Shown here: positions 13,848-31,756 of the stretch, piece after piece
Position numbering within the stretch: the first letter of the stretch is position 1
Layout: every line of letters starts with the position of its first letter
Origin: TPA_inf: Saccharomyces
Taxonomy: Eukaryota
Reading direction: 5' to 3'
Length of the DNA: 64,000 bases
NCBI GenBank assembly: GCA_000146045.2
Contig: BK006934.2
Span: forward strand, 224,001 to 288,000
The notes under the pieces: model-generated
What the model saw: only the letters and a program-made list of their open reading frames with translations
The model's database searches: none
Told to the model about the DNA's origin: nothing
Program-made: the position numbers and the translations under genes

Positions 13848-13939
13848 TGCGAATTCTGTGGATCGAACACAGGACCTCCAGATAACTTGACCGAAGTTTT
13901 TTCTTCAGTCTGGCGCTCTCCCAACTGAGCTAAATCCGC
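13848..13939 (-). tRNA. tF(GAA): tRNA-Phe(GAA) gene with a 19-nt intron
   Basis: The minus strand reads GCGGATTTAGCTCAGTTGGGAGAGCGCCAGACTGAAGA, then a 19-nt intron (aaaaaacttcggtcaagtta), then TCTGGAGGTCCTGTGTTCGATCCACAGAATTCGCA. This is identical to canonical yeast tRNA-Phe, with anticodon GAA. Confidence 0.93.
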
Positions 13940-27100: not shown

Positions 27101-28225
27101 ATGTTTGCAAACGTTGGATTTAGAACTTTGAGGGTCTCGAGAGGTCCCCTTTATGGTATGTTTATTGTTTTATTCATTGGTGTGCTAATTGCTAAATTTG
27201 CGGGACAAATGCTAATCGACTCAGAGACTAACTTTTCTCATATCATAGGATCCTGCAGTCAAATCATCAGCTTTTCCAAGAGGACTTTTTACTCAAGTGC
27301 CAAGAGTGGGTATCAATCGAACAACAGTCATGGTGATGCGTATAGTTCAGGTAGCCAATCAGGCCCGTTCACCTATAAAACCGCGGTAGCTTTCCAACCA
27401 AAAGACAGAGACGATCTGATATACCAAAAACTAAAGGATTCTATTAGATCACCTACAGGAGAAGACAACTATTTTGTTACATCAAACAACGTTCACGATA
27501 TTTTTGCCGGTGTCGCAGACGGTGTTGGAGGATGGGCTGAGCATGGGTATGACTCCAGCGCCATCTCAAGAGAATTGTGTAAAAAAATGGACGAAATAAG
27601 CACTGCTTTAGCAGAAAATTCATCCAAAGAAACGCTTTTAACGCCAAAGAAAATTATTGGTGCTGCATACGCAAAAATTAGGGATGAGAAAGTAGTGAAG
27701 GTTGGTGGGACAACAGCCATTGTGGCTCACTTCCCATCTAATGGAAAATTGGAAGTTGCCAACTTGGGTGATTCTTGGTGTGGAGTCTTCAGAGATTCTA
27801 AACTTGTATTCCAGACAAAGTTTCAAACTGTTGGATTTAATGCTCCTTACCAATTGTCAATCATTCCAGAAGAAATGTTGAAAGAGGCCGAAAGAAGGGG
27901 TAGCAAGTATATTTTAAACACCCCCAGAGACGCTGATGAATATAGCTTCCAATTGAAAAAAAAGGATATTATTATATTGGCTACCGATGGTGTAACCGAT
28001 AATATTGCCACAGATGATATTGAGCTTTTTCTGAAGGATAACGCTGCGAGAACAAACGATGAGTTACAGCTATTATCCCAGAAGTTTGTGGACAATGTTG
28101 TCAGTTTAAGCAAGGACCCCAATTACCCCAGTGTTTTTGCGCAAGAGATTTCTAAGCTAACTGGCAAAAACTACAGCGGTGGTAAAGAAGACGATATAAC
28201 TGTTGTTGTCGTGAGAGTTGACTAA
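27101..28225 (+). CDS. PTC7: PP2C-type protein phosphatase. The unspliced ORF is 374 aa. It contains an in-frame 93-nt intron at about 27156..27248, and the spliced product is 343 aa.
   Basis: The GTATGT 5' splice site begins at 27156 and cuts the GGT codon (G|GTATGT). A branch-like gagACTAACttt follows, then a 3' catag. The intron is open in frame, so the ORF track reads straight through it. PP2C motifs (DGVGGW, ATDGVTDN) lie downstream. Confidence 0.82.
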   Translation: MFANVGFRTLRVSRGPLYGMFIVLFIGVLIAKFAGQMLIDSETNFSHIIGSCSQIISFSKRTFYSSAKSGYQSNNSHGDAYSSGSQSGPFTYKTAVAFQPKDRDDLIYQKLKDSIRSPTGEDNYFVTSNNVHDIFAGVADGVGGWAEHGYDSSAISRELCKKMDEISTALAENSSKETLLTPKKIIGAAYAKIRDEKVVKVGGTTAIVAHFPSNGKLEVANLGDSWCGVFRDSKLVFQTKFQTVGFNAPYQLSIIPEEMLKEAERRGSKYILNTPRDADEYSFQLKKKDIIILATDGVTDNIATDDIELFLKDNAARTNDELQLLSQKFVDNVVSLSKDPNYPSVFAQEISKLTGKNYSGGKEDDITVVVVRVD

Positions 28226-31300: not shown

Positions 31301-31756
31301 CTCCTAAAAGCGGACTAGTAAATCGGCCATTGAACCTTTGATGAAGTCCACTTATGATCTCAACAGCGGCAATTACGTCATCATTTTTATTCAAAACATT
31401 TAGCAGACATTCTGTTACCGTCACTATTATCTCTGATAGGTACTTTTCCAAGGACGCCTCACTTAAATCTTTCAATAATGAAGATTCTGAACCTTTCACA
31501 AAACCCTTCTTTAGTTTTTTTATAAAGCCAGTGTTTCTCTTTATACTGGAATCCAGTTTTTTACTTTTCAGGGGAAAGACTTCTTCGCCATTCCAAGCTC
31601 GGGTGTTCAAATCATGCAATTCTTTTTTCCGTCCATCCTGTTGATACATAATTGTTACCGTAGTTTACAACGATCAATAAAAGAAGTTAGTATAAAACCT
31701 TAGAAGTACTGAAAGGCCGATCTGGCCACAGTAAGATAAATCAAACATACGTCCAT
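28374..31756 (-). CDS. NMD2: Nonsense-mediated decay factor Upf2. Minus-strand exon 1 is 31756..31751 (ATGGAC) and exon 2 is 31637..28374. The intron is 113 nt (31750..31638). The product is 1089 aa.
   Basis: The minus strand reads ATGGAC|GTATGTTTGATT ... TTTTATACTAACTTC ... TATCAACAG|GATGGACGGAAAAAAGAATTG. Exon 2 gives MDDGRKKELHDL. The ORF-track start MYQQ is an in-frame ATG inside the intron. MIF4G-like repeats and a long D/E tract are present. Confidence 0.85.

Follow-up and report, generated by a model that had tools for sequence, protein, structure and literature searches.

This locus raises the question of whether an intron near the start of a yeast phosphatase gene is simply removed, or whether its retention supplies the cell with a second protein. 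The window, meaning the whole 64,000-nucleotide stretch of DNA that was analysed, carries this gene on its forward strand, and the answer favoured here, with a probability of about 97%, is that regulated retention of this intron lets one PTC7 gene make two proteins. The sequence contributes the anatomy of the intron, the identity of the products, the hydrophobicity of the retained segment, the conserved frame, phase and splice signals, and the coding-type selection. The literature contributes RNA-level retention, translation of both forms, their localisations, the dependence on carbon source and spliceosome, and the effects on CoQ6.

The gene is PTC7 (YHR076W), a PP2C/PPM phosphatase of the PTC7/PPTC7 subfamily. 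As the first-pass annotation had reported, a single continuous open reading frame for 374 amino acids occupies positions 27101-28225 (+). Joining the sequence across the junction 27155/27249 shortens the product to 343 amino acids, and an exact-sequence look-up shows this product to be letter-for-letter identical to 'type 2C protein phosphatase PTC7 [Saccharomyces cerevisiae S288C]'. Database entries from many S. cerevisiae strains also contain the 374-residue read-through product. The family assignment is supported by Pfam matches to PF07228 (51.2 bits, cut-off 25, E=2e-13) and PF00481 (32.1 bits, cut-off 20.3, E=1.2e-7), and the nearest solved structure in the PDB is the PP2C enzyme 6ae9, 'Probable protein phosphatase 2C 1' (E=1.4e-14). 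Protein identity to the PTC7 proteins of other Saccharomyces ranges from 83 to 91%, and published RT-PCR primers for PTC7 match the window exactly at 27104-27123 (+) and 27447-27466 (-).

PTC7 is flanked upstream by a PPE1-like alpha/beta hydrolase gene on the minus strand and downstream by an NMD2-like gene with MIF4G and Upf2 domains, giving the arrangement PPE1-PTC7-NMD2 at a locus that we take to lie at about 251.1 kb on chromosome VIII. NMD2 follows PTC7 in every relative with an identifiable neighbour, distant genera included, and PPE1 is seen before it only in the window and in the 91% relative described below. The elements of the gene are as follows.

27101..27155 (+), PTC7 exon 1, consisting of 18 codons and the first base of glycine codon 19; both isoforms match deposited Ptc7
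27156..27248 (+), spliceosomal intron of 93 nt or 31 codons, phase 1, a multiple of three in length, without an in-frame stop
27156..27161 (+), consensus 5' splice site GTATGT, immediately preceded by G27155, which opens codon 19
27246..27248 (+), 3' splice site TAG, of the YAG type, invariant across six Saccharomyces
27158..27217 (+), hydrophobic, transmembrane-grade stretch MFIVLFIGVLIAKFAGQMLI, residues 20-39 of the 374-residue isoform
27249..28225 (+), PTC7 exon 2 including the stop codon, encoding a basic linker rich in serine and threonine and then the PP2C/SpoIIE-type phosphatase domain
About 27461-28219 (+), PP2C/SpoIIE-type phosphatase domain (PF07228, PF00481), residues 121-373 of the 374-residue form

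The intron had been described as a stop-free 93-nt segment that preserves the downstream frame and whose 5' splice site, G|GTATGT, cuts a glycine codon, and each of these statements holds. Its 31 codons contain no stop in the frame of the gene, compared with three and two stops in the other two frames, and they encode the peptide MFIVLFIGVLIAKFAGQMLIDSETNFSHII, precisely as it had been read. The interrupted codon specifies glycine in both forms, as GGT when the intron is retained and as G|GA after splicing. The intron ends had been given with a tolerance of one nucleotide, a doubt that is now resolved by the identity of the 343-residue product with S288C Ptc7p. Shifting both ends by one base would produce the same mRNA, because a G flanks both sides, and the ends are fixed at 27156 and 27248 by the GT-AG rule.

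Absent from the first-pass annotation is the non-consensus branch site of this intron. A branch site of the form TACTAAC was sought at a distance of 10-60 nt from the 3' splice site, but the exact heptamer does not occur in the PTC7 intron. Three related heptamers are found instead.

27183..27189 (+), branch-site-like heptamer TGCTAAT, 60 nt from the 3' splice site, specific to S. cerevisiae
27210..27216 (+), branch-site-like heptamer TGCTAAT, agreeing with the consensus at 5/7 bases, candidate branch A at 27215, 33 nt ahead of the 3' splice site
27226..27232 (+), branch-site-like heptamer GACTAAC, agreeing with the consensus at 6/7 bases, candidate branch A at 27231, 17 nt ahead of the 3' splice site

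A CAG at 27222-27224 was considered as an alternative in-frame 3' splice site, which would define an intron of 69 nt, also a multiple of three. As the principal site it was rejected on two grounds: its distance from the conserved-position branch A at 27215 is only 9 nt and it lies upstream of GACTAAC, and the TAG ending at 27248 is the one used in the curated product and in the S. mikatae annotation. Minor use of this CAG may still occur.

Retention would give the protein a hydrophobic, transmembrane-grade segment. A hydropathy plot, one of the checks suggested alongside the original description, gives a best 19-residue Kyte-Doolittle mean of 2.29 for the unspliced form (residues 21-39), compared with a maximum of 0.56 for the spliced form. 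Taking as a membrane anchor a segment of about 19-20 residues with a mean of at least 1.6, the 374-residue form has one candidate, and the retained segment is the only transmembrane-grade hydrophobic stretch of the protein; the hydrophobic character claimed for the intron peptide is thus borne out. Peptides from MFIVLFIGVLIAK... would be specific to the 374-residue form. The basic N-terminus encoded by exon 1, MFANVGFRTLRVSRGPLY, is common to both isoforms, and a hydrophobic stretch placed just past such a short basic segment would be expected to act as a signal anchor.

Splicing removes the 31 codons and leaves an N-terminus, MFANVGFRTLRVSRGPLYGSCSQ, that had been likened to a mitochondrial presequence. 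The comparison is apt, as the N-terminus of the 343-residue product is basic and free of acidic residues, with 6 K/R, 0 D/E and 12 S/T among its first 47 residues, and by this crude composition test it has the make-up of a mitochondrial presequence. For the transmembrane segment as for the presequence, the assignment is based on plain hydropathy values and on counting charged residues rather than on dedicated predictors.

The principal alternative holds that this is an ordinary constitutive intron, that its length and open frame are coincidental, and that the retained transcript is noise without a functional protein. A coincidence of this kind in one genome is not rare: shuffled versions of the 93-nt intron are stop-free in frame in 11-21% of cases, and multiplying by one third for a length divisible by three leaves about 4-7%. 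The 5' intron of the neighbouring NMD2-like gene, 3.4 kb away, serves as a control within the window.

31638-31750 (-), NMD2-like intron, ATGGAC|GTATGT...TACTAAC...CAG|GATGGACGG

This intron is 113 nt long, is not a multiple of three and meets an in-frame TAA after 18 codons, so the start given for this gene in the list of open reading frames is an internal ATG within the intron. The product of NMD2 itself takes part in nonsense-mediated decay, the pathway evaded by PTC7 pre-mRNA.

The coincidence was weighed against six Saccharomyces genomes, namely the window, S. mikatae, S. arboricola, S. eubayanus and two Logan assemblies, L001 (91% protein identity) and L002 (87%). In this alignment, which had also been suggested at the outset as a check on the intron frame, the intron measures 93 nt in every genome, with zero gaps and zero in-frame stops. 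Among 30 columns for each codon position, 10, 8 and 18 are variable at the first, second and third positions, respectively. The mean pairwise dN/dS is 0.28 for the intron, a noisy value over only 30 codons; the corresponding values are 0.13 in exon 1 and 0.05 in the catalytic domain. Judged by these patterns, the intron evolves like loosely constrained coding sequence, under purifying selection of the coding type. Its dS is 0.59, below the 0.9-1.4 seen in the exons, and part of the conservation therefore operates at the RNA level, through splice signals.

Beyond Saccharomyces, the introns differ in length, with 84 nt in Torulaspora globosa, 84 nt in Maudiozyma exigua, 72 nt in Nakaseomyces bracarensis and 60 nt in Kluyveromyces lactis, and all four are phase 1, multiples of three and stop-free, each encoding a hydrophobic stretch. 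The property thus holds in 10 genomes, six of Saccharomyces and four of other genera, and the encoded segment is still hydrophobic despite sequence divergence. T. blattae has kept both copies of the duplicated gene, one with a 103-nt intron that is not a multiple of three and is full of stops, the other intronless with an N-terminal hydrophobic segment, and it divides the two products between these two genes, as is also reported in PMC3597508 and PMC7491326. The literature adds comparable levels of precursor and mature mRNA and distinct phenotypes of the isoforms (PMC4227748, PMC11585973, PMC6506691). A stop-free intron of suitable length would not be significant on the basis of a single genome, and the cross-species data rule chance out. 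A coincidence without function is consequently very improbable and, on this comparative evidence, effectively refuted.

Still less credible is the suggestion that there is no intron, with the 374-residue frame as the sole product and GTATGT...TAG as a chance match in coding sequence, since the continuity of the frame and the frequency with which automatic annotation of S. cerevisiae strains and relatives has deposited only the 374-residue form are outweighed by GTATGT, the heptamer at the TACTAAT position and TAG, none of which shifts within Saccharomyces even though synonymous codons would be available, by splice signals that recur in four distant genera with the first usable YAG 15-24 nt beyond the branch A, by the curated S288C protein being the 343-residue spliced form, and by published RNA-seq junction reads (PMC7491326) and RT-PCR of both forms (bioRxiv 10.64898/2026.08.09.743773).

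Two small departures were seen among these splice signals. The 5' splice site is GTATGT in five of the six Saccharomyces, and in S. arboricola it is GTACGT (L004:1556-1561), so that the first residue encoded by the intron is Thr in place of Met. In the K. lactis assembly GCA_007993695.1 (L007:1047-1106), the in-phase 5' splice site is GTATGG, with 60 nt to the first usable TAG, as opposed to the GTATGT stated for this species in PMC7491326.

Regulated retention in PTC7 can accordingly be laid out as a sequence of proposed steps. A consensus 5' splice site combined with a weak branch site would make splicing inefficient, so that a sizeable share of the pre-mRNA would be exported. The unspliced mRNA lacks a premature stop and escapes nonsense-mediated decay because the intron is a multiple of three and stop-free in phase. 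It would be translated into the 374-residue phosphatase, in which the helix of residues 20-39 would anchor the protein in a membrane and direct it to the nuclear envelope. Removal of the 31 codons would join the basic N-terminus to the basic, acid-free linker rich in serine and threonine, creating a mitochondrial presequence, and the 343-residue phosphatase would be imported into mitochondria. We infer that retention is due mainly to the weak branch site. Nothing read from the sequence speaks against this account. RNA structure was considered as a cause and rejected, as folding of 27136-27268 showed no unusual secondary structure relative to shuffled sequences (z = 0.05).

The original description had noted that the locus fits the alternative splicing described for PTC7, and the same mechanism is indeed presented in PMC7491326, PMC3597508, PMC4227748, PMC11585973, PMC6506691 and PMC4607428. 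The intron is reported to comprise 93 bases encoding 31 amino acids with a transmembrane segment (PMC4607428), and PMC7491326 applies the same criterion of a length divisible by three without an in-frame stop. According to PMC7491326, PMC3597508 and PMC6506691, the unspliced form is the nuclear-envelope isoform with a transmembrane helix and the spliced form is mitochondrial. Precursor and mature mRNA are similarly abundant, and the precursor contains no premature stop and is not a target of nonsense-mediated decay (PMC4227748). PTC7 transcripts compete with those of ribosomal proteins, splicing of PTC7 rises when the latter fall, and the two isoforms act in opposite directions on CoQ6 synthesis (PMC11585973). 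Through coenzyme Q synthesis, PTC7 connects how efficiently its intron is spliced with the change between fermentation and respiration.

Inefficient splicing has been attributed to a non-consensus branch site (PMC11585973, bioRxiv 10.64898/2026.08.09.743773, PMC6506691), labelled 'Nonconsensus BP' in PMC11585973 and PMC6506691 and given as UGCUAAU in bioRxiv 10.64898/2026.08.09.743773. The heptamer at 27210 is TACTAAT at the same position in the five other Saccharomyces. It is read in frame as (A)TG-CTA-AT(C), encoding M-L-I, and its TAA falls out of frame because the general reading is xTA-CTA-ATx, giving Leu-Leu-Ile, or Met-Leu-Ile in S. cerevisiae. The near-consensus GACTAAC at 27226, which differs from the UGCUAAU named in the literature, occurs only in S. 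cerevisiae among the six genomes; it is GGCTAAC in the 91% relative and absent in the others. GACTAAC is listed as a natural branch point in YCL002C and PBA1 (PMC2839277). At 27183, the relatives have TGCTTAT or TACTTAT, and S. cerevisiae has gained its heptamer through a synonymous change from CTT to CTA.

Counting heptamers of the form NRCTAAY, S. cerevisiae has three, the 91% relative two and the remaining four relatives one each (TACTAAT). At least three such heptamers arise in 0.03% of intron shuffles, a pattern noticed post hoc in a hydrophobic peptide whose Leu-Ile codon pairs (CTA-ATx) favour these heptamers. These observations raise the rather unlikely idea that the S. cerevisiae lineage re-tuned its isoform ratio by remodelling the branch-site region, with the ancestral TACTAAT degraded to TGCTAAT and two heptamers added; the branch point might then be, wholly or in part, the adenosine of GACTAAC, or the heptamers might be decoys competing for U2/BBP. 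If so, the extra heptamers of PTC7 would help to set the level of retention.

Within the same region, nine bases, GACTCAGAG (27218-27226), immediately 3' of the conserved branch-site position, are invariant in 6/6 Saccharomyces, three synonymous sites included, an observation that was also made post hoc. This block contains the CAG at 27222-27224 and may be under RNA-level constraint.

The feature is already known, including the localisation of the isoforms and the link to coenzyme Q, from Juneau 2009, Marshall 2013 (PMC3597508) and Hurtig 2020 (PMC7491326). The alternatively retained intron of S. cerevisiae PTC7 that PMC7491326, PMC3597508 and PMC4227748 credit to Juneau, Nislow & Davis 2009 (Genetics 183:185) belongs to this same locus, with nothing different from the gene in the window. 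Conservation of a stop-free intron divisible by three within Saccharomycetaceae, together with subfunctionalisation in T. blattae, has been reported (PMC3597508, PMC7491326), and PMC6726248 notes that the peptide encoded by the intron is conserved among sensu stricto yeasts. The comparative results presented here reproduce these published findings independently. PTC7 is the textbook case of intron retention in budding yeast that yields two functional proteins with different destinations. A reading of sequence alone recovered this unusual and experimentally validated feature with correct coordinates and mechanism, and no new biology is added.

The T. blattae pair PTC7a/PTC7b offers an anchor form, TBLA_0H01920 (Kyte-Doolittle 2.58), and a presequence-like form, TBLA_0A03190; S. 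cerevisiae relies on one gene and retention, whereas T. blattae has two genes, and its stop-containing intron of a length not divisible by three is not translatable. FES1, SRC1, MRM2 and SKI7/HBS1, yeast genes in which splicing alters protein targeting or the intron is in frame, resemble PTC7 in that one gene produces two proteins through a splicing choice (PMC7491326, PMC6726248). Among them, FES1 differs in using alternative 3' ends and SRC1 in using alternative 5' splice sites, and for MRM2, too, an intron that is coding, in frame and conserved has been reported (PMC6726248). PTC7 has been described as unique in yeast for a retained-intron pre-mRNA that carries no premature stop and is not a target of nonsense-mediated decay (PMC4227748).

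A related arrangement may exist in CTG-clade yeasts, which are reported to lack this intron. Some annotated PTC7 orthologues in this clade (P0101, P0108 and P0109, from C. tropicalis, Scheffersomyces and Spathaspora) have about 16-25 extra N-terminal residues with a hydrophobic segment when compared with P0087 and P0119. The segment crosses an internal Met that aligns with the C. subhashii start (MLVSILTKR versus MLLSVISKK). In these yeasts, alternative initiation might provide the same choice between anchor and presequence; the simpler possibility is that these gene models are over-extended.

Elsewhere in the window, a 92-nt tRNA at 13848-13939 (-) scores 56.7 bits with Rfam and is not reported by ARAGORN; its sequence, GCGGATTTAGCTCAGTTGGGAGAGCGCCAGACTGAAGA...TTCGCA, looks like that of an intron-containing tRNA-Phe(GAA).
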